A DNA stretch of 43,829 nt from Chrysochromulina tobinii (taxonomy: Eukaryota): positions 1 to 43,829 of the forward strand of contig JWZX01003238.1 of the NCBI GenBank assembly GCA_001275005.1, written 5' to 3'. The notes under the pieces are model-generated. The model searched no databases and was not told where the DNA came from. It was given only the letters and a program-made list of their open reading frames with translations. Of this stretch, positions 2,614-34,394 are shown in pieces (position 1 is the first letter of the stretch; each line of letters begins with the position of its first letter). The position numbers and the translations under genes are program-made.

Positions 2614-3831
2614 ATGAAGTTTGGCAATCACCTCTCCGTCGAGCACAACAAGACGAGCGGCAAGGTGACGATCGAGATGTCGGAGGATGTCGTGATGGGC
2701 GCATACCTGTCGGGCTGCGCCATGATGATCGGCACCGTTCTAGTCGGTTGCGCCGTGTGGCAGAAGAAAACGAAAAGCACGGAGGTCTGCGCATGCGCAT
2801 CGTGCCGTGGGCACTACGTCAACAAACATACGCTCGCGAAGGGCGGGTTCGGCGAGGCCATGCTGGCGACGCGCCAGGGCAAGCAATATGTGCTCAAGCG
2901 GGTCGGGTGCGACACGATCAACGCCGCGAACACGGCGCTCAAAGAGGCGTCGCTCCTGCAGAAGCTTGACCATCCCAACGTCGTAAAGTTCGAGGACGTC
3001 TTCTTGCATCGGCACGACAACGGCGGCTGCTCGGTGGCCATCGTGATGGAGTTTTGCGCGGGCGGCGACCTCATCGATCGGCTCGAGTGCTCTCGGAACG
3101 AGCGACCCCTGAGCGAGTTGACCACATTCGTCTTCCTCGAGTCCCTCTGCCACGCGCTCCACCACGTTCACTGCAACGGCGTGCTGCATCGCGACCTCAA
3201 GTCGTCCAACATCTTCGTAAGCCGTGGCGACAAGGCGGTCAAGCTCGGCGACTTCGGACTGGCGTGTTCGGGGCTGCCGCGCCGTCGGCTGACGGGGTCG
3301 CCGCGTCGCATGAGCCGTTGCGGCACCGCCATGTACATGTCACCCGAGGTAGCCGATTGCAAGCCGTACGGCGCCGCGTCGGACACGTACGGCCTCGGCT
3401 GCGTGCTGCTCGAGTTGCTGCTTCGACACCAGCTTCGCGAGCGTCGCCCCTTTGAAGAAAGAAAGGATTACATCAAGGAGGCGCTCGCCGCGGCCGCGGG
3501 GCACGGCTGGCACACCTTCGAACGCAGCTCCGATCTCGTGTGGCGCATGCTCGATGAGTCTCCCAAGAGTCGCATCGAGCTGCCCGCAGCCGCTGCAGTT
3601 GCTGCCGCGGCCATCAGCATAATGGCGCGACTGCAGCCGGTCGCGGGCACCGAGTCATCGTCGGGCGCCGGAGCTGAGCCGTTGGTGTCGACCGTCTCTG
3701 TTACGTCCGCGTCCGTGCACTCGGCGGCCGTCACGGAGCGGCAGCCTGAGCGGCATCGCACCAATCCGCCGAAGCGCGTGGCCGCCGAAGAGCGGTCGTC
3801 GCGCCGACGCAAGCTGTTGTACGCTGAATGA
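2614..3831 (+). CDS. Ser/Thr protein kinase, NEK/NIMA-like, with N-terminal hydrophobic (TM-like) segment
   Basis: LAKGGFG, YVLK, EASLLQKLDHPNVVKF, HRDLKSSNIF, KLGDFG, CGTAMYMSPE and KPYGAASDTYGLGCVLLEL. First ATG is at 2614. Confidence 0.9.
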   Translation: MKFGNHLSVEHNKTSGKVTIEMSEDVVMGAYLSGCAMMIGTVLVGCAVWQKKTKSTEVCACASCRGHYVNKHTLAKGGFGEAMLATRQGKQYVLKRVGCDTINAANTALKEASLLQKLDHPNVVKFEDVFLHRHDNGGCSVAIVMEFCAGGDLIDRLECSRNERPLSELTTFVFLESLCHALHHVHCNGVLHRDLKSSNIFVSRGDKAVKLGDFGLACSGLPRRRLTGSPRRMSRCGTAMYMSPEVADCKPYGAASDTYGLGCVLLELLLRHQLRERRPFEERKDYIKEALAAAAGHGWHTFERSSDLVWRMLDESPKSRIELPAAAAVAAAAISIMARLQPVAGTESSSGAGAEPLVSTVSVTSASVHSAAVTERQPERHRTNPPKRVAAEERSSRRRKLLYAE

Positions 3832-15221: not shown

Positions 15222-15458
15222 CTGAGACTCGGCTTTGCGGTACTAGTGGACGGTCACGGCCGCCGTCCGGACTGGGAAAAAACAATGGCGTCCTCCACAC
15301 AGAAAAACCTCCGCAAAGCGTCGTTCCGGGCAATTCGAAAGCGAACGTGGCGTCTAGATGGACACCAATATTCTGTCGACGAAACGCCTGTTCAAAAAGC
15401 TGAGATCCCACCGTTCGCGGATTCTCAAAGCCCCTTCCGTGAGGCGCATCGCGACGAA

Positions 15459-17915
15459 ATGTCACGCAACATCGTTGCGATCGCCGGCGCAGCCACGGCA
15501 GTGGCACTCGTGATTGAATGTGTTCGGCGGTTCAGACGGCAGCGTAGCATGCACACAGCCGTGCTCGATTATTGGTTTGCCGGCGATCTAGAGACTGCTT
15601 ACGAGACCAAGTGGTTTGTGCAAGCGGGTTCGGCGGCGCAGCTGGCCCTTGACGCAGACATTCGCACACGTTTCGGTGAGTTGCTCGCGAGTGCGGAGCG
15701 TGGCGAGCTCGATGGTGCGTGGTCTCGCACGCCGCAAGCTGCGCTCGCGCTCATTGTGCTTCTCGACCAGCTCTCACGGCACGTGCACCGCGGCGATGCA
15801 GCGGCAGTGGCCGCCAATGATGTGCGAGCGCTGCGCACGACGCGCATGCTGCTCGCACGTGGTTGGGATGGTGGGCTCGACACCGCGCAGCTCATTTTTG
15901 CGCTGATGCCGTTGCGCCATCAAGCCACGGTGGAGCGGCTGCGCGAGGTGCTCGAGCGAACGGCGCCGCGACTCGAGGACAGCAAGGCGAGCACCGAGCT
16001 CCTGCTGCGCTTCCGCCGACACACGCAGCTGCGCCTGTTGCACCTCGAGAACCGTGGCGACCCGCATGACATCCTCGAGCGGCCCGATCGCGAGCACGAG
16101 CTCGACCAGAGCGAGGCGCCCGAGGAGACGCTCAGCCAGACCGTGCTCGCTTTCCTCGAGGCGAATGGCCTTCTGGGGGCTGCTTGTAACGGGCAGCCGA
16201 CGGCGCGTGGGCGTGGGCGTGAAAGCCAGCCAAAGGCGAATGCCCGCCGGCGTGCGCTTCCGCAGGTGCGCGAGTGTGAGCACACAGCTGGCAGGGGCCA
16301 GGGCATGGCGGCCACCGGGAACACGGACAGGAAGCATAGCGCTGTGGCGAGCGCGGTCGACACGGCCCCTGCGGAGGGCGAGAGCGCCCACCACGGCGCC
16401 ACGAGCGCTGTGGCGAGCGCGGTCGACACGGCCCCTGCGGAGGGCGAGAGCGCCCACCACGGCGCCATCTTGGCGGAGGAGCCAGCGCTGATCGTGTCGC
16501 TGTCGGGCGGCGTGGACTCGATGGTGCTCACACACGTGCTGCTCGCGCTACGCAAGGCGCACGGGCTGCGTTATTCGGTCCATGCGGTGCATGTGGACTA
16601 TGCGAACCGCGTCGAGTCGGGCGCCGAGGCGACCTTCGTGGAGACTTGGTGCCGAGAGCGCGGTGTGGAGATCCGCGTGCGAACCGTAAGTGAGATGCAG
16701 CGCGCGACGTGCCAGCGGGATGAGTACGAGCGCGAAACCCGCCGGATTCGTTTCGACGCATACAAGGCGTGCCTGCAGGCCACCGGTGGCCGTGGCGTCT
16801 TCTTTGGTCATCACGAAGGGGATCTGCACGAGAACGTGCTCTGTAACGTCTTTAAGGGCGCGCAGCTGCTCAACGTGGCGGGCATCGCGGCCGCCTCGAC
16901 GGTGGGCGGCGTGCTCATCTACCGGCCGATGCTCCCACATCCCAAGAGCATCATCTACGAGTACGCTCACAAGTATGGCGTGCCGTACTTCAAGGACACC
17001 ACACCGAAATGGTCCAATCGCGGCAAGCTGCGCGATCAACTGTTTCCGCTCCTCCAAGACACGTTTGGCGAAGGCATCGGCGGGCACCTGAGCGCCCTCG
17101 CCAAGGACTCGGCGCAGTGTGCGGAGCTCGTCGAGGCACACATGCTGCGACCCTTCTGGGGCTCTGTCCACGTCTCGGCGGCGGCTGCTTGGGTTGACGT
17201 CGCGGCGTACGTGCAGATGCCCCTCTTCTTCTGGCGCGAGGCGCTCCGGCATATCTGCGAGCAGATGCTCGGCGTGGGCCTCGTCAAGGAACGTGCCGCG
17301 CTTCTCCTAATGGAGCGGCTTCAGCGCCCAGCACACAAGCGCAAAGATGGCTGGCTATCCCTCAAGCGTGAGATCCGCGCTTTACTTGTGGGCACTCGCT
17401 TGGTGCTCTTTGCGCCACACCTCTTCCCCGGCGAGCATCATGGGAGAGTCTGGGCAGCGCGTCCACATGCCGCCGAGGGGACTCGACTCGACCCACCAGC
17501 AGAGGGCACCGAGACGACCGAGAGCGTGTTTGGCCCCTGGCATGTGCGCCTGCGGCTGCTGCCAGCCGCCGGCACGGACGCCGACGCCACGGGCGATGCC
17601 TTCGCAGCTGGGGGCAGCTCCACGAGTGAAGTCGTGAGCGTACTAGGAAGCGAGCCCTCGGTGTTGTGGCGGCTCGCCGAGGGTCGTATTGCTTACATGC
17701 TACCTCGGCACCCGGAGTATGCCATCGGCTCAAGCACGCACGCACAGGTCGGGGCACTCGAGGGGCTTCGCGGTGAGGTCTGGGCCACGCTGCTAGCAGC
17801 ATTCCCACAGGTGATCGGCGTTGGCCAGCAGAGCTGCAGCGGCTGGGTGCGCGTGGAGCTCACCTGCCGCGCCGCAAAGGCGGACCTCGAGGGTGGCGAT
17901 GGGGGACCGCCCTAG
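15459..17915 (+). CDS. tilS: DUF924-like domain fused to tRNA(Ile)-lysidine synthase TilS-like PP-loop ATPase
   Basis: DUF924-like: VLDYWF..KWF..DADIRTRF..LALIVLLDQLSRH..FALMPLRH. TilS-like: VSLSGGVDSMVL, HVDYANR, RRIRF, GHHEGDLHEN, IYRPML, YFKDTT..RGKLR. Start is taken at ATG 15459; ATG 15285 is also possible. Confidence 0.82.
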   Translation: MSRNIVAIAGAATAVALVIECVRRFRRQRSMHTAVLDYWFAGDLETAYETKWFVQAGSAAQLALDADIRTRFGELLASAERGELDGAWSRTPQAALALIVLLDQLSRHVHRGDAAAVAANDVRALRTTRMLLARGWDGGLDTAQLIFALMPLRHQATVERLREVLERTAPRLEDSKASTELLLRFRRHTQLRLLHLENRGDPHDILERPDREHELDQSEAPEETLSQTVLAFLEANGLLGAACNGQPTARGRGRESQPKANARRRALPQVRECEHTAGRGQGMAATGNTDRKHSAVASAVDTAPAEGESAHHGATSAVASAVDTAPAEGESAHHGAILAEEPALIVSLSGGVDSMVLTHVLLALRKAHGLRYSVHAVHVDYANRVESGAEATFVETWCRERGVEIRVRTVSEMQRATCQRDEYERETRRIRFDAYKACLQATGGRGVFFGHHEGDLHENVLCNVFKGAQLLNVAGIAAASTVGGVLIYRPMLPHPKSIIYEYAHKYGVPYFKDTTPKWSNRGKLRDQLFPLLQDTFGEGIGGHLSALAKDSAQCAELVEAHMLRPFWGSVHVSAAAAWVDVAAYVQMPLFFWREALRHICEQMLGVGLVKERAALLLMERLQRPAHKRKDGWLSLKREIRALLVGTRLVLFAPHLFPGEHHGRVWAARPHAAEGTRLDPPAEGTETTESVFGPWHVRLRLLPAAGTDADATGDAFAAGGSSTSEVVSVLGSEPSVLWRLAEGRIAYMLPRHPEYAIGSSTHAQVGALEGLRGEVWATLLAAFPQVIGVGQQSCSGWVRVELTCRAAKADLEGGDGGPP
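16338..16467 (+). repeat. In-frame 66-bp tandem duplication (22 aa SAVASAVDTAPAEGESAHHGA[T/I]) in the DUF924-TilS linker
   Basis: 64 identical nt at 16338-16401 and 16404-16467. Confidence 0.95.
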
Positions 17916-19624: not shown

Positions 19625-20582
19625 ATGCAGCTCGACCCAGTACGCAGGCCCGAGCTGCCTGCCTGCGCCGAAGCCGACTTTGCTCGCACTGGCTTCATAG
19701 TGGCCGAAAACCTCCTCGGCGCAGCCACTTGCGCAGCTCTGAACGCACAGCTGGAGCTTGTGTTGCGTGGCGAGTGCGACGGTGCCTTCGGCTGTGCGGA
19801 CAAGGCACCCAAGTTCAGTGCAGAGCGCCGCTGTAAGCCGGGTAAGAAGCCGCCGCCACTCGGCGGTCCATCGAAGCAGACGCTGCAAGTGATCAACATA
19901 TGGAAGGCTGATGCCACATTTGCAAGCGTCGTGCTGAGCCCCACTCTCGGCCAATTGGTTGCTCAGCTTGGTGGCTGGGCGGCTGGGGCTCGCGTCGCGA
20001 ACGATCAGGTGTGGGCCAAGCCTCCTGGCGCGGCGCCCATCACCTTTCATCGCGACTCCGCCTACTTCGACTTCACACCCTCGGATGTGATCACCGTGTG
20101 GCTCGCACTCGATGATATGGAGCCTGAGCTCGGCCCCCTGCAGTACGTTGCCGGCTCCCACCAGTGGGCGGATGGGCGCGTCGGCTCGGCGCAGCAGTTC
20201 TTTGATTGCCGCAACCGGTTTGCTCTGCTGCACGACGCAGCGCGGCGTGAGGGCATCGAGGAGCCCGAGGCGGCTCTCGAGCTCACGACGCTCGGCGTGC
20301 GCATGGGCGGCTGCGGCATCCACAATGGTCGGCTCTGGCATGGGTCGGGTGCAAACGAAAGCCCGAATCGGCCGCGGCGAGGCCTAGGCATCCACTTTGT
20401 GCCGGCGGACGCGCAGTTCACGCACGCAATGGGCAGCACGCTGGCGCACAAGCTACGCCCACCGGAGCAAGTGAACGGCACGGTCATGTCTGAGGCGCTC
20501 TTCCCGATCACCTGGAGGCCTGATCATGCGGCATGTAGGATCCGTGGTGCAGATCCGTGTGCGGATCCGTCGCCCACAACTT

Positions 20583-20623
<41 letters not shown>

Positions 20624-20719
20624 CGAGTCCGGTTTTTCCCCTCTGCGGCGAGCCTGCTGCTGAAGGTGACCATACTCGCTGCCGACAAGGTTCAGATTTC
20701 GGTGGCGGTCAAATTATAA
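19625..20719 (+). CDS. Phytanoyl-CoA dioxygenase (PhyH)-family Fe(II)/2-oxoglutarate dioxygenase
   Basis: FARTGFIV, DQVWAKPPG..ITFHRD (HxD), ITVWLALDD..ELGPLQYVAGSH, and HNGRLWHGSGANES...RR (distal His, 2OG-binding Arg). The C-terminal tail past the poly-Gly is uncertain. Confidence 0.88.
20585..20623 (+). repeat. (GGC)13 trinucleotide microsatellite (poly-Gly in the PhyH ORF)
   Basis: Read directly. Confidence 0.95.
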
Positions 20720-21128
20720 TTGCGGCCCTGTTACGGCCCTGTGTAGTCAGAAAACGCGCCAATAGGAACTTTATACGATCTAGGTATTTTGAGGAGCAAA
20801 CGGACCCGCGTACACACTAGACGCACTTGTCGCACTTCAGAATCTAAATGCCGAATTTTGTCTAAAGTTTGTCTCACCGGTCAGTACTGTTTGACAGTAA
20901 CTAGTACAACTGTAGTTTATTACACGACACTTCTACTGTAACAGTTTAAACTGTACAACTGTAGCGCACTCGCGCCGCGCCGCACCGCCAAGTCCGAATC
21001 TAAAGTTGGTTTTGTGAAATCGTGCATGAATGTGAACGGCCCGCGGCCACGGTGCCTGTGAATGCTTTTTACGTGTCATAAATCACACATACACACATTC
21101 ACATTCACACCCGGAGGAAGGGGTTTGG

Positions 21129-22466
21129 ATGGCGCAAGCGACGCTTCTTGTGCGGAGCCTCGCCTCAATGCGCGTCAACGACTCCCAGCACTGCACTTGT
21201 AGACCTGTGTGCAGCACCCTTGAACCGACCACATCAGAGCTTTCAAGAATCTGGCAAGCCTTCTTCAACGAAATGGAAAGGCAAGGCCACTACCGATTTG
21301 AGCGGTTGCTATCTGTGATCCCTGCTGTCGAGACACTGGCTGTAAATCACGCAAGCATTTCAGCGGCACGATCAGCGGACCCTGCCAATGTGGGACTGTG
21401 CGTGTGGGAGACATTAGGGCCCGATGTTGTCACACACATCCTGAGCCTCGCCGGCATTGCTGCCACCGGTGCTGCTGCTGCTGTGAATCGAGCACTTCGA
21501 GAGAGCACGCTGCATGATGATGTGCTGTGGGAGCGGCACACCCGTACGCTCCTGGCAGTCGTGCGCACATCGACAAACACCCGATCAGTGTGGACAGCGC
21601 TGGCGCTCCAATTGCCAGTAGGCCCAGGGAAGCCTAACTGCGGCTGGCGCGCCCTGGCGAGATGCGTGCGCGACGGCGAGCGTTTGGAGCACTGGTCGCA
21701 CCAGGTCTCGCAGATCAAGGACCAAACGGTCTCGGCTGCGCTATCCGTGTCCGCTGAATCCACGGCGTATGTCCGAGGAGCTCGAAGCGACGAGGAGTGG
21801 GCGTTGATCCTCACGCAAAAGAGGCTAGAAGACGCGCGTCGGCGCTTGAGCCTGCTCGCTCTCAAAGACTTCCGAGAGGCACAACGCGTCGCCACGCCGC
21901 CGCAGTCACTGGCCATGGCGACGGTGCTGTTGCGGCTACTGCTTGAGGGCGTGGATGAGGTGTCCACGACCTACTCGAGCATCGAAAGCAGCAGTCGCAG
22001 TAGCAGCAGCAGCACTAGCGACCTCGAGACCAGCAGCATTGAGTGGTTTCGTCAGTCGATGCCTTCGCTCGGTGCGCGCTTTGGTGAGCAGGCGCAGGAG
22101 CACGTGGGCGCGCTGCTCTCCCGGATGCTCTCTTTCGAGCCAGCAGACACGCCTACAGAGCGCTTGGATGCTGTCGAGGCGGCGTTCCCTCGTGTCTGCA
22201 TGGCGCGCCTCGATCAGGCCATGCGCATCAGCATGCAGGCCAAGGGAGGCATCACCGATGAGTGCCGCGTGCTTCGCGTGGCATCGGCAGTGACTCGCTG
22301 GGTGGTGGCAATTGTCATGGACGTGAGAGTCCGCAGGCGCATGCGAGACTGCGCCACAGTCCTCGACGAGCTAGGCGACTGCCTCGAGGCGTTGTTCGCC
22401 CAGTTGTGGGGTGAGCTGGGCCCTGTGGGCGGGGTAGGCAGGCCGGGCGAATGGAAGCGAGCGTGA
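21129..22466 (+). CDS. Hypothetical protein: F-box-like motif + dynein stalk/microtubule-binding-domain-like region
   Basis: 445 aa ORF. WETLGPDVVTHILSLAG...AAVNRALRE...DDVLWERH is F-box-like. LEDARRRLSLLALKDFRE...PPQSL...LLSRMLSFE...ASAVTRWVVAIV is dynein-stalk-like. Confidence 0.7.
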   Translation: MAQATLLVRSLASMRVNDSQHCTCRPVCSTLEPTTSELSRIWQAFFNEMERQGHYRFERLLSVIPAVETLAVNHASISAARSADPANVGLCVWETLGPDVVTHILSLAGIAATGAAAAVNRALRESTLHDDVLWERHTRTLLAVVRTSTNTRSVWTALALQLPVGPGKPNCGWRALARCVRDGERLEHWSHQVSQIKDQTVSAALSVSAESTAYVRGARSDEEWALILTQKRLEDARRRLSLLALKDFREAQRVATPPQSLAMATVLLRLLLEGVDEVSTTYSSIESSSRSSSSSTSDLETSSIEWFRQSMPSLGARFGEQAQEHVGALLSRMLSFEPADTPTERLDAVEAAFPRVCMARLDQAMRISMQAKGGITDECRVLRVASAVTRWVVAIVMDVRVRRRMRDCATVLDELGDCLEALFAQLWGELGPVGGVGRPGEWKRA

Positions 22467-22516
22467 TGGTGTGAATTCACATGAATGTCGGCTGAAGTCG
22501 AATCGAGCCCGCAAAC

Positions 22517-23398
22517 ATGCCTGATGAGGACGAGGACACAGAGAAGGCTGAGCCCGTGGTTGACAATGCCAAGGCGGGACCCGAAGAGGACAGTGCCCGG
22601 GTCGAGCCTCCGGATCCGGAGCCTGCCTTCCGCCACGTATTCGAGAAGCGGGCAAGGCAATGGGCTGAGGGACGTGGCCTCATCTCATTGCTCTCATCGC
22701 TCGAAGCCTTTTGCCCTCACACGTTCACTCTCGCTGCAGCTGAGCTGAGCGATGAGGCACCGCGGCCATGGGTGCCCGCCGAAGGCGCAGAGGAACGTGA
22801 GGTGAAACTCGCATACCACAAGGCCACACGTTTGCTCCACCCCGACCGCCTCTCGAAGCGCGACCTCTCTGTGCGAATCGAAGCCGAGGAGGTTCTCAAG
22901 GTGCTCACGACGGCCTTTTCCACCAAAATCGACTGGTTCAAGGAAGCGGAGCCGACGTCGCCCTCGCTGCACGAGATTCCCTCGAAAACGGAGCCTACCG
23001 CGGCAAGGAGCAGCAGCGCTAAGGACATTCGGGACAGCATCTTTGGCAACGCGGCAAAGCCTGCGACACCCACGTCGCCCGGTGGAAGCTGGATGCCGCC
23101 GCCGCCGCCCACACGGACGAATTCGACGCCGTCCTCCGGAGGCACCGACCTGCGCGACTCCATCTTCGCCGGAGCCTTCGATGTCAAGCCGAAGCCGTCG
23201 CCACCAGTAACGGCCTCGTCGCCATTTGACGACCCACCTGGCGGCTCATCAAACCCTTTTGGAGCAGCACCGACCACTCGCGTCTCCGACGCCTCGCTCT
23301 CCGCGGCCACCGCGCTTTTCGGTGCGGCGGCTCCGTCCGAGACGGTGAATCCGTTCGGGCCGCCGTCAACAGCGCCCGCCGGCAACCCTTTCGAATAG
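22517..23398 (+). CDS. Auxilin-like J-domain protein with C-terminal NPF motifs
   Basis: RQWAEGRGLISLLSSL...W...EVKLAYHKATRLLHPDRL...AEEVLKVLTTAF is an auxilin/Swa2-type J domain. The low-complexity Pro/Ser tail carries three NPF motifs. Confidence 0.8.
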   Translation: MPDEDEDTEKAEPVVDNAKAGPEEDSARVEPPDPEPAFRHVFEKRARQWAEGRGLISLLSSLEAFCPHTFTLAAAELSDEAPRPWVPAEGAEEREVKLAYHKATRLLHPDRLSKRDLSVRIEAEEVLKVLTTAFSTKIDWFKEAEPTSPSLHEIPSKTEPTAARSSSAKDIRDSIFGNAAKPATPTSPGGSWMPPPPPTRTNSTPSSGGTDLRDSIFAGAFDVKPKPSPPVTASSPFDDPPGGSSNPFGAAPTTRVSDASLSAATALFGAAAPSETVNPFGPPSTAPAGNPFE

Positions 23399-23534
23399 CG
23401 GATCAGGAGGAGGAGGGGTAAGCGAGCACCATAGACCCCACCCAACACCAGTGTCATGCAGTGTGTTTGTGGAGTCCGGTAACTGTTGAGAACAATAGTA
23501 CTGTGGGGGGCGCTGGTACCGGTCTTGTGTCCCG

Positions 23535-23584
23535 GCTCCCCCGGTGTCTTAAAAAGACACCCGGTAAAATGACACCGGGGGAGC
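23535..23584. repeat. Perfect 14-bp inverted repeat (GCTCCCCCGGTGTC / GACACCGGGGGAGC) with 22-nt spacer
   Basis: Arms at 23535-23548 and 23571-23584. A 14-bp direct repeat, GTACAGTCGACCTC, follows at 23603 and 23622. Confidence 0.85.
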
Positions 23585-23724
23585 TGCGGTGCAAATGTAC
23601 CGGTACAGTCGACCTCGTACAGTACAGTCGACCTCTAAGTCGGGCGCGCTCGTGTTCTTGCATTCTTCGCGAGCTTGGAAAAAGACCGTGTGCGACTGCC
23701 GCGTGCCTTGCGTCTCGGGCAAAA

Positions 23725-25338
23725 ATGCCATCCCCCGCCCCTCCCCTGCATCTTGGATCTTTTTCGCTAGACAGGCTCGAGCCCCTCGGACAGGGGAACT
23801 ACGGGTGCTGTTACCTCTACGTCGATCGCGCCACTGGTGCGCAGAGGGTTGTGAAGAGCGTGGCCTCCGCGATCGGCATTTCAGACCCTCGGCGTGAGGC
23901 AGCAGCACTGGAGCGCATCCAGGCACATCCCCACCCCAACGTCGTCAAGTTTTTCGGGCACGAAACCGTTCCTGGTGGCAGCCTCCTCAGCTTCGAGTGC
24001 ATCAGCGGGGGAGAATTGTATGACAACGTGATTGAAGCACTTTCACAAGGCACGCCTGTGCCCACGGTGCGGGCACGCACGCTCTTCCACCAAATTGCGC
24101 GTGGCGTCGATCACCTGCACAAGCTGGGAATAGGGCACCTCGACATCAAGCTGGTGCGTCGTCGCTAGGAACGCCCGAACCCCTTGCCCGCAAGTCCCTG
24201 TAGCCGCACTGCCTCCTGAGTCGATGCGAGCGCCTTGCAGGAGAACTGCATGCTCCATGCCGACATGCAGACTGTGAGCGTCGTAGACCTCGGTCTGTGG
24301 CACGACCTCCAGCTCGGTCTGGTGAACCAAGATCTTTATCGCGGCTCGCCCGCCTACATGTCGCCCGAGGTGTTCGTCAACAAAGGCAGGCGAGAGCCTC
24401 CGACGATGCCGTACGATGCCGTGCCAGCGGACGTGTGGTCGCTCGGTGTGTGCCTCTTCGTGATGCTCATGGGCTTCTATCCGCTCGACGAGCACCCCAC
24501 CATCAGTGGGTACCAGCACCTCCAAGAGCAGCACACGCTCGGCTTAGGTACTCTCGAGGCCACCTGCGGACCTGTGTCCATTCAAGTCTTCCCCTTGCGG
24601 CGTATGTACGGACCGATGCGGCGCCACCAACTGCTCAGCAGCGCGCCCGAGGCGGCGGACCTCCTCGATGGCATGCTGGAGGCTGAGCCCGCGGAGCGTC
24701 TCTCCCTCCAGCAGATCCTAACGTCCGAGTTCGTGCACGACAGTGAGGCCCTGACCGAGAGTGAGGTCTACGCCGCTGCTGCTGAAGCCGAGAGAGCCGC
24801 CGCCGTGAGCGCCGCCGCCACCGCCGCCATCGCCGCCATCGCCGCCGCCTCCGACGGTGCCGAAGCCGACGCCGACGCCACAGCCGACGCCACAGCCGAT
24901 GCCACAGCCGATGCCTCTGGACTGCCGTTGCCGCTGCCGCCGCCGCCCCCGCCGCCCGTGCAAGGCATTGAAGAGCGCCCATCACGACGCCAGCGAGCCG
25001 TGCTCCGCTCCGTGAGCCAGCTCGCGGGCGAGCCGATGGAGGCGGATGGCGCTGAGGGCGCCGGCGTCGGCGGCGCCAGCCTTAGCCGATTGGGCAGTGC
25101 CCTTGCCGCGTGCGTCCTCGAAGAGGTGCCTTCTATGGAATGGCGCTCGCTTTCGTCTGGTCCGCCCCCCTTCCATGGCCAGTCAAGCGGCGGTTACGCG
25201 AGCATGGCGACGGGCTCATGGAACGACGTCGACGAGGACGAGAGCGTCGAGCAGCCCTCGTATCGCTCGATGGAAGCGGCGGGCCCACCCGAGGTGCCGC
25301 CGCCGCTCAAGCGTCAGCTCGCAGTGGCGGTGGCGTGA
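23725..25338 (+). CDS. Two-exon Ser/Thr protein kinase (CAMK-like, non-RD), ~508 aa
   Basis: Exon 1 23725-24153 (LGQGNYG, VVK, HPNVVKF, GGELYD, GHLDIKL). Intron 24154-24240 (GTGCGT...TTGCAG, 87 nt, contains the TAG). Exon 2 24241-25338 (ENCML, DLG, GSPAYMSPE, DVWSLG). Splicing restores the catalytic loop HLDIKLEN. Confidence 0.9.
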
Positions 25339-31539: not shown

Positions 31540-34394
31540 TCACTCTTCCTCCTCTTCGTTGCCGCCGTCCTTTTGGCCTGGCAGCGCGGGCGACTGCTGC
31601 GTGCGCGCCTGGCACAAGAGAAGGAGGCTCTCCTCGACCTGTGATACGAACTTGTTCTTGACTCTTGACATGTTGCGTTGCACTAATGAGAACGACTCAA
31701 ATTCTATCATCAGGTTGTGCAGCTCCTGCATGGCGCGGTTCGTCTCGCCCAACTGGCTCGGCAGGTAAAAGTAATCCTGCATTGCGCCGGCCACGGAAGC
31801 GACTGCGACGGTGATCGCAATCCAGTTGCTTTGGCCGAGGAAAGCCAGCACGGCGCCGGAACTGTTGGCGAGCATTTGCGCATATTCGAGCCGATTTAAG
31901 CGGTTGCTCAGCGCTGGAGCACGCTTTTCCAGAAGCTTACAGATCGATCTGACACGGCATTCAACGTAGGAATCGATGGCCATCTGAGAGACCAGGTCGT
32001 CGGAGTTGTTGTTCTTCTTCTCTTTCTCGTCAGCTTTATCGACGGCCCCTGTCACCTCATCGACGGCATCGTCGATAGCCTCAATGGCGTCCTCGATGGC
32101 ATCGCCAATGTCTTCCATCGCGTCTTCGATCTTGTCCCTGAGGAAGATGGATTTATGATCTTTCTTGGGCTTCCTGCGAATTCCATAGTAGAATTCGTCC
32201 ACGTGCACCCTGAGATGGTCCATGAAAATTGTGCGATCTGCCTCAGTCTGCACCTGGTATCTGGACATCCTGCCCATGTGCAGCGAGCCGCCCTTGCTGA
32301 TTTCGGAGGATATGACCGTTTTGTAAATCTCCGCGCATGTGCCGACGAAGAGCTCACGTGCCTTTATCTCCTTCCTCATCTTGGAGATGGGAACTGGGTC
32401 TTCTTGACCGGGCACTATCTCAGTTTGTGGGGCGGCCGTGTCGTATCCTACGGAAGTGGGCCAGGCCGCGCGCATGCGGTAGTAGTAGATCTGCGCGGCG
32501 ATCTGATTGGCTGCCATCAGGCAAGCGGCCCACTTCTCCCGCGGTCGCAACTTGGACCGGATGGTGCCGATAAGAGTGGCCACCATGGGAAGAATGATCA
32601 TCGTGAAGGAATATCCGCCGGTCAATCCGGCGTACAGTCCCTCTTCTCCCGGAGCGACGATCGGTGCGACCTCGGTAACATTCGAATCTGACTGCAGAAT
32701 GCGTGCACTCAAGGTCGACATAGCGAGCCTGCGCACGCCAGCAGGGACGAGACCAGCCGCTGCCGCGAGTGCCGCTGTCTGCTCTTCCTCGGCGACTGCT
32801 AGAGCGTAGACGACGGTGATAAACGTCGTCACGACGCTGAGAAGATACAGAGTCAACTGTAAAAAGTCGGCGACTCTCTCGAAGTAGCATGCATTCTCGT
32901 AGAGCGTAATGTGGCGCTTCCACGCGGTGAGGATGCAAATCATCTCCGCCTCACCCAGCCCGAGCTCCGGCACGCCGCCGCCGCCTGCGAAGCAGCAGGT
33001 CAGCGTGGCAAGCACATCCTCTGACGAATCGTTCAACGTGTCCACGGCCACGATCCCTGTCCGTAAGAGCATCGGAGCTCGTTGCTGCAACTCAATCATC
33101 ATGAGAATCTCGGGCAAGCCAAAGGTTTCCGTCCACGGTCTAGGTGAGGACATGTGCTCCTTCGTGTTCTTTAGGATCTCTTCCGGGTCAGGCGAGGGGA
33201 ACATTTTGAGCAGCTGTTCCCGAATCGCGGCATAAGCCTGAGTAAGGCCACCGGAGTGGTGTAGCATCACAATGTTCTCGCCGCGCTGGATGCGATAGGT
33301 GAGCGTGGGGACCATCCTGTCCTCGCCGTTTGCGTGTATGTAGCCGACTGGTCCAAGGCCCGACAAATCGATGCGATCGTGATCGTGGTCGACGAGGATG
33401 TAGTGCGTCGCTGAGGCAAATGCCATCGAGGTGTAGAAGTACTGCCACCTGGAGCGACTTGTGACTGGTACGTCCGGGTCCTCCGGGCGAGGGAGAGGTT
33501 GATCGAAATATGGCGAGTAGGGGTCCAAGAAACCTGTATCAGGGTCCGCGACATCATAGAATCGGTGCACAGGAGTCTTCAGACCGGCATCCTCTATTCC
33601 GAGCTCTTGCCCCGCGGCTATGGCCATCTTGAAAGTATTCAGGCAGTTCTGCGTCTGCTCGACCAGCTCTCCTTCACCCGTCTCGCCCCTAAAAACGTCG
33701 AACCGATCCAAGTAGTCGATGTACATGATGTACGGTCTGGAGCTGGTCTTCATCATGGCCATCTCGATCAGCAGCTCGGCAGCAGGCGCCTTGTATTGGG
33801 TGCGATCGATGACAAGCCAGTTGCCCCCCGATGGCTGGTCACACATGTCAAGGAGTGCTGCAAAGATGATGGCCATCTTGGCCAGGATCACTTCGCACTG
33901 TCACGGTCGGGGAGAGAGGAGCACGCGATCAGTCACGGGTATAGACGGGGCCCGAGACTCAAGGCGTCGGTGACGGAGCCCGAGGAGCATGGCATCGGTG
34001 AGGGGGTGCAAATGCTCACGATGCAATTTAGAGCATACTCTTCCGCCTCGGGACCCTCCTTCTTCTGATTGAACCTGGCTTGCATGAGCGCATCGTCCCA
34101 GAAGGTCTTGAAGTGTGACGATTTGCACAGCACGTTCGTCGCGAACACCTTCGGATGGATTGCGCCAGCATCACAGTGAATCATGCAGTTAGGATCGCCC
34201 TTGTCGAAACACCAGCCCCACTTGTCATCCATAACGATGCTCTCCAGCTTTTGCGCACTGAACCCTGATCTCGCCCCTTCTGGAACGTACAACAACTTGG
34301 CCGTCTTTCCGTTCTCTTTGAAGGTGAACGAAGAGTAGACAGCGGCATTGCCCCCCTGGATGCGCGCAAACGCCTTTTCTGCCGATGGATCCAT
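31540..34394 (-). CDS. Two-exon SLOG (TRPM/LSDAT-like) + tandem SLATT (DUF4231-like 2TM) membrane protein, ~910 aa
   Basis: Exon 1 34394-34020. Intron 34019-33898 (GTGAGC...GACAG, 122 nt, phase 0). Exon 2 33897-31540. SLOG-like: THYILVD...VGYIHANG...RGENIVMLHHSGGLTQA. SLATT-1: AWKRH..YENA..TM..TM..PREKWAACLMAANQI..IYYYRMR. SLATT-2: YVECRV..LEKRAP..TM..TM..TNRAMQELHNL..FVSQVE. Confidence 0.8.

Follow-up and report, generated by a model that had tools for sequence, protein, structure and literature searches.

The gene at positions 21129-22466 (+) of the window, the 43,829-nucleotide stretch of DNA analyzed here, encodes a 445-residue protein in which an atypical F-box is joined to a diverged dynein microtubule-binding domain (MTBD). 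This combination is real and conserved, and apparently has not been described before. The gene is real and conserved in a family; its product has a two-part architecture and contains no motor. The two folds are predictions from structural models. In the original prediction the architecture was not recognized as a described one, and in keeping with this, a search of openly available papers yielded no description of a dynein MTBD in an F-box protein, nor of a motor-less MTBD family.

Locus, transcription and protein family

The window consists of gene-dense eukaryotic DNA with a G+C content of ∼60%; proteins encoded next to the gene fall into 90%-identity clusters with named proteins of Chrysochromulina tobinii and C. 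parva. The open reading frame at 21129-22466 (+) is complete, intron-free and transcribed; its assignment as a single-exon gene of 445 aa is based on the reading frame, on RNA contigs without joints and on homologue P0002. The latter begins at the position of Met14 (21168), which is a candidate for an alternative start. A single DNA contig covers 20700-23492 with 0 differences, and a poly(A) RNA contig from a separate study spans 21127-22044 in one ungapped piece, which links the F-box to the N-terminal half of the MTBD-like domain. Five further RNA runs gave scattered coverage of the gene as far as 22452, with no joints listed. RNA depth over the gene was low in the culture runs, and gaps in RNA coverage inside the gene, which occur in low-depth runs, do not indicate introns. 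The upstream spacer at 20700-21075 had zero depth in six of the six RNA runs examined. A scan of metagenome contigs matched a single locus, identical to the window gene. Its two neighbors are unrelated to it, one belonging to the PhyH family and the other being J-domain-like, and no dynein motor part was found in the 27 other window reading frames scanned.

Several features of the surrounding DNA were recorded in passing. The PhyH-family reading frame at 19625-20719 carries a (GGC)n run (20582-20624) near its 3' end; because its exact 364-aa product is absent from the protein collection, an assembly error or splicing may affect the end of the gene. The short protein encoded at 22517-23398 (+) contains a J-domain-like HPD segment (PF00226, E 0.0035) and three NPF motifs near its end, a composition like that of auxilin; its cluster includes an NCBI model named partial kinase, and this model may connect it with the kinase reading frames at 23569-25338. 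An 876-aa reading frame at 15285-17915 (+) fuses DUF924 to a PP-loop domain of the TilS/TtcA type, and a 778-aa reading frame at 31540-33876 (-) has a weak C-terminal match to SLATT_1 (E 0.0007, below cut-off), which is associated with SLOG/SMODS systems.

Searched against 1.84 billion representatives, a profile restricted to the C-terminal region retrieved 24 clusters of proteins of 110-540 aa at E 0.001 or better; three earlier word-seeded searches had returned only 3, 3 and 5 proteins. The F-box columns are also filled in 15 of the 24 clusters, and the fusion of F-box and MTBD-like domain recurs in each of these 15, which share <50% identity. The remaining nine clusters comprise proteins of 110-282 aa, and for two of them a longer member of the cluster carries the F-box region. 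Across 16 homologues the two halves are about equally conserved, with identities of 27-54% for the F-box and 25-61% for the MTBD. As claimed in the original prediction there is no AAA ring: a Walker-A motif is absent from all 17 full-length family rows, and the longest profile match is 540 aa. Arg239, Asp247, Trp306 and Trp391 are invariant in these rows. The N-terminus carries a family-specific segment (21192-21317, +) composed of a CxCxPxC motif (aa 22-28; 21192-21212) and, in the model, helices at aa 35-51 and 58-63. Cys22 and Cys24 are kept in 13 of the 17 full-length rows and Cys28 in nine, and Cys357 (22197-22199) is near-invariant (16/17). To judge from this conservation pattern, the family cysteines of the motif and Cys357 could possibly form a metal site.

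The dynein MTBD-like half

The region comprising aa 223-406 (21795-22346, +) is predicted to fold as a dynein MTBD with short CC1 and CC2 stubs. An AlphaFold2 model of aa 16-424, calculated from 40 family sequences with no dynein rows and no templates, had a pLDDT of 80.1 and a pTM of 0.77. Because AlphaFold was trained on dynein MTBD structures, the fold is a prediction, albeit one made from input without dynein. Exhaustive structural alignment of the model with 48,161 chains gave human inner-arm dynein d (8I3J) as the best match over aa 223-406 (Z 14.3, rmsd 2.3 Å for 137 residues, 15% identity), followed by 3ERR (Z 12.7), 5AYH (12.2), 6L4P (11.8) and 2RR7 (11.2); the predicted fold is also common to 6RZA and 6RZB. 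The top five of the 48,161 chains are thus dynein stalk or MTBD structures, and the first clearly unrelated fold, Dps, appears at Z 8.6; in a second look at the matches, dynein MTBD or stalk structures filled each of the first 11 rows. Kinship with ferritin/Dps (Z up to 8.6) was rejected, the resemblance being read as a common four-helix arrangement. The Foldseek comparison advocated in the original prediction agreed: dynein chains or MTBD constructs take up the first 18 rows listed (one was assigned from its length only), with 3ERR as the best (probability 1.00, E 0.01) and no match at E 0.001 or better. A single-sequence fold of aa 221-424 (pLDDT 39.5) was discarded, as the fold search with it gave only generic helices. 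The structural match to the dynein MTBD on which the original prediction hinged therefore exists. Its description of a stand-alone dynein stalk applies to the stalk tip, consisting of the MTBD and short CC1/CC2 stubs; a full stalk is not present, and the tip does not stand alone but is fused into a larger protein.

At the sequence level, likeness to dynein is consistent with this assignment but weak. The proposed dynein motifs LEDARRRL (21825), DFREAQR (21867), TPP (21894), IEWF (22038), SRMLSF (22119) and VTRWVVA (22290) are found in the expected order, and all are colinear with real dynein MTBDs in an alignment of 29 dyneins; the elements shared are the ordered L-x2-A-x3-L, D-x2-E, PP, W, FL and WV-x-A, together with a variable insert at the flap position. 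The Pfam MT profile (PF12777), by which the original prediction was to be checked, matched neither the protein nor any homologue scanned (0/1, 0/5, 0/22 and 0/18 family proteins). A dynein MTBD reference set was assembled from eukaryotic contigs inside MAGs (54 loci) and gave 28 Pfam matches, 27 of them above the cut-off. The 54 contigs matching the dynein motif (L002-L055) lie in prokaryotic MAGs; PF12777 scored above cut-off in five of the five genomes checked, which shows that these MAGs are contaminated with eukaryotic DNA. Against an 18-segment dynein MTBD profile the protein scored 2.9 bits, a value reached by 2 of 2000 shuffles, and its frame ranked first among 191 window frames; homologue P0003 reached 6.5 bits (0/2000 shuffles). 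With a 29-sequence dynein profile the scores were 3.5 bits (3/2000) for the protein and 5.5 bits (0/2000) for P0003, and homologue P0093 scored 12.9 bits against a dynein-only profile.

Profile-profile comparison of the family with dynein yielded a score of 18.7 over 111 of 127 template columns; none of 100 column shuffles scored above 13.0, and the reversed profile gave 8.4. The HHalign probability was low (2%). In the reverse search of the family profile against 9,721 six-frame pieces, the first dynein MTBD came at rank 8 and was not separated from background, and PDB sequence searches with the protein or small alignments returned no dynein; matches to PduA (E 0.4-1.4) in the PDB sequence search were read as chance. 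In the language-model Atlas, clusters of PF12777 account for 27 of 30 hits, at 0.90-0.91, and share 139-148 features with the protein, where close family members typically share 170. The 'MTBD-like' motif of TTLL11 is unrelated, as far as the available text describes it (PMC12366701). Collectively, homology to the dynein MTBD is very probable, with a dynein-like case that is carried by the predicted structure and sequence scores that are weak in absolute terms.

The anatomy of the domain departs from that of dynein in several respects. Because both stalk prolines, each found in 27 of 29 dyneins, are missing from the protein in the alignment, and because the CC1 helix is 21 residues long in the model, the domain has no long sliding stalk. 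A long helix following the F-box (aa 173-206; 21645-21746, +) is likely one element of a bundle of helices by which the short stalk is closed. Matches to four-helix-bundle (ferritin-like) folds span model residues 8-409, which suggests that CC2 packs together with the N-terminal and post-F-box helices in the predicted bundle. H2 is separated from the conserved Trp by a variable Ser-rich loop (∼aa 275-303; 21951-22037, +) that ranges from 12 to 104 residues across homologues, has low pLDDT and occupies the position of the axonemal dynein flap, which is located between H2 and H3 (PMC6629372). Compared with dynein MTBDs, the stretch from H3 to H4 contains additional residues and CC2 is preceded by an extra helix; the score for Pfam MT is sub-threshold.

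In Dictyostelium dynein, Glu3390 in H1 and Arg3469/Lys3472 in H6 and the H6-CC2 loop form key salt bridges with α-tubulin (PMC4298687). In one dynein of the reference set (L057), the H1 Glu is 76 residues away from a Lys that itself lies eleven positions ahead of the CC2 Trp. Chain 27PT_A, which we take to be the Dictyostelium protein, has three more residues in the same H1-to-CC2 segment, giving 79 as from 3390 to 3469. By alignment and spacing, the counterparts in the protein are Glu250 (acidic in 14 of 17 rows), Arg380 (14/17) and Arg383 (15/17), so that, on this residue-by-residue correspondence, charged residues at the dynein tubulin-contact positions appear to be kept. Other positions have changed: the conserved dynein H1 lysine (Lys or Arg in 25/29) is Gln252, and the serine preceding CC2 in 20 of 29 dyneins is lost. 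In the model, Arg380 and Arg383 are situated at the start of one long CC2-like C-terminal helix (aa 377-423; 22257-22397, +), which also contains Arg390 and Trp391; an extra helix (aa 358-371) precedes it and the H6 region is remodelled. As the model places the two arginines in CC2 after this extra helix, their equivalence to the H6 residues is one of sequence spacing only.

The F-box half

The N-terminal half contains an atypical F-box (aa 92-140; 21402-21548, +) that ends in W-x-x-H. The F-box-like motif noted in the original prediction is matched by PF12937 at aa 98-139 (14.8 bits, E 0.025; below the cut-off of 24.3), and the segment alone gave E 0.0033. Of 22 homologues, 11 match PF12937 with E <1 and two exceed the cut-off, P0094 (25.9 bits) and P0101 (26.4 bits); P0101 also passed PF00646 (21.0 vs cut-off 20.5). 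A PDB sequence search with the family profile placed FBXO3, GID2 and FBXL3 in five of the top six positions, with FBXO3 the best (E 0.025), and when the Atlas was searched with aa 80-215, the ten highest-ranking named hits all belonged to the F-box family or clan. The three-helix F-box fold is present in the model (aa 88-188), and this region superposes on SKP1-bound F-box structures with Z 6.3-7.0, which is moderate for a small helical motif (over aa 88-184: 5VZT, Z 7.0; 8ZUH, 6.9; 9KBF, 6.8). The chains matched are FBXO31, Fbs2, FBXO3, β-TrCP and FBXW11. With support from the family profile, language-model neighbors and fold, the F-box assignment stands, and we consider homology to F-boxes to be quite probable.

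The arrangement resembles that of FBXO-type proteins (FBXO3, FBXO31, Fbs2, GID2; PF12937/PF00646), with an N-terminal F-box, the W-x-x-H end and a helix following it. Unlike in these proteins, the usual Leu-Pro start is not found, Leu96 (16 of 17 rows) being followed by Gly97 in 12 of 17, and the core residues are small: Ala108, Thr113 and Gly114 replace the bulky Leu, Leu and Ile of FBXO3. The small residues of F-box helix 2 are a family-wide feature (Thr113 and Gly114, each in 14 of 17 rows). SKP1 binding is putative. SKP1 was not found in sets of 5 and 35 eukaryote-contaminated MAGs; intact SKP1 genes were seen on viral-collection contigs (L086:1147-1674, L092:1348-1833 and L098:1210-1671), two of which derive from giant-virus MAGs.

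Possible function and related microtubule proteins

Because an MTBD-like C-terminal half is joined to a diverged F-box N-terminal half, the protein may well be an adaptor that docks SCF on microtubules. The best explanation of the data, which we put forward tentatively, is a static, motor-less SCF adaptor with a dynein-tip-like C-terminal half; microtubule docking is implied, with nothing specific to the axoneme. The F-box would bind SKP1, while the MTBD-like domain would grip the surface of the tubulin dimer through Glu250 together with Arg238/Arg239, Arg249, Arg253, Arg380 and Arg383. With the short stalk clamped by the protein's own helices, affinity would be fixed rather than ATP-cycled, and tubulin or neighboring microtubule proteins would be ubiquitylated, for example during remodelling of flagella, haptonema or spindle. 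Animal SCF ligases are reported to act on centriole and cilium proteins (PMC4696186). In contrast to a dynein heavy chain, the protein has neither AAA ring nor tail, and lacks the long stalk with its two prolines; in contrast to FBXO-type proteins, its C-terminal module is dynein-derived and not an LRR, WD40, kelch or lectin domain.

F-box proteins carry their substrate-binding module on the C-terminal side, which is where the MTBD-like domain sits. The protein could thus be a true SCF adaptor whose dynein-derived domain works off the lattice and recognizes a soluble substrate, either free tubulin dimers or an LC1-type MTBD-binding protein. We regard this as somewhat unlikely. It would account for the MTBD-like domain taking the place of a substrate-binding module, for the family-specific additions near H3-H6 and for the changes at H1 and the start of CC2, and 6L4P, an LC1-MTBD complex, illustrates that an MTBD can bind a partner other than tubulin. 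Against it, few positions are better kept than the acidic residue of H1 and the basic pair ahead of CC2. Continued use of the tubulin face would lead one to expect this, although the argument does not separate the lattice from the free dimer.

The protein may instead be a structural microtubule-associated protein whose MTBD-like domain grips the lattice of an axoneme, flagellar root or haptonema and whose F-box is a packing element that recruits no active ligase; this we judge unlikely. The small helix 2 residues would fit tight packing on an unusual partner, and haptonemal microtubules are described as coated with unidentified proteins and devoid of a motor (PMC6398456). In addition, a non-motor chain of the Toxoplasma intraconoid microtubules, 9YA2_L, matches the model over its residues 211-389 (Z 8.4, rmsd 4.6, 137 of 162 residues; PDB chain residues 1207-1457 against window positions 21795-22346). 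Speaking for a working F-box, and against this reading, are its conservation at about the level of the MTBD, its passing of the Pfam cut-off in two of 22 homologues and its superposition on SKP1-bound F-boxes.

To judge from its 162 modelled residues, 9YA2_L is most likely the globular domain of ICMAP2, which makes up 10% of the 1,678-aa protein and attaches to the outside of the microtubule at 8-nm intervals (PMC12819142). The chain may be a motor-less MTBD whose structure on a microtubule is already solved, although the Z-score alone is no proof of kinship. The available text of that study does not term the globular domain an MTBD, reports no F-box and, unlike what is considered here, describes binding as a dimer between two protofilaments (PMC12819142); in the accessible part of an earlier study, ICMAP2 is without a recognizable domain (PMC10774369). 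Other non-dynein or unnamed chains match the same region, namely 9FQR_Xl (residues 1187-1496, Z 9.2), 7JTK_C (434-608, Z 8.8) and 9E5C_2e (113-425, Z 7.1); these are axonemal or radial spoke chains and may be generic helical matches.

It seems very improbable that the C-terminal domain has a helical fold of other origin, which resembles an MTBD by chance or through an AlphaFold bias toward known structures. The low sequence scores (2.9-3.5 bits for the protein; HHalign probability 2-4%) would be compatible with it, and Z-scores below ∼13 are common among helical bundles. Yet the motifs are colinear across the domain, none of 100 shuffled profiles came near the real score, P0093 scores 12.9 bits against dynein alone, the Atlas neighbors are PF12777 clusters, and the best structural match has Z 14.3 at 2.3 Å over 137 residues. 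Almost no likelihood is left for the view that the gene is the decayed remnant of a dynein, an assembly error or two genes joined by chance: the exact protein is missing from NCBI records, whereas three neighbors are there, but the DNA contig shows no difference over 20700-23492, the RNA contig bridges both halves, and the recurrence of the fusion in 15 clusters already refutes such a reading.

Returning to the microtubule-docked adaptor, a bolder version of it, which we hold to be doubtful, would make the protein a ubiquitin-ligase receptor built from dynein's foot, which reads the tubulin surface where motors step and, while flagella or the haptonema are being remodelled, marks tubulin or lattice proteins for destruction. 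Such a protein would belong to a wide, undescribed class of motor-less MTBDs with a solved example perhaps on the Toxoplasma intraconoid microtubules. Viewed thus, the protein would be dynein-foot-like in its working without being a dynein, and an F-box relative with putative SCF membership.

The dynein MTBD has been studied as part of a motor in which the stalk switches its affinity. Reuse of an MTBD without a motor or a long stalk would provide a natural MTBD of fixed affinity, and its coupling to an F-box would offer a concrete route for aiming ubiquitin at microtubules. The haptophyte Chrysochromulina bears two flagella as well as a haptonema (PMC4580454), and the protein is a candidate for the unidentified non-motor proteins reported to coat the haptonema (PMC6398456). 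Even if its F-box were inactive, it would still represent a new kind of microtubule-associated protein.
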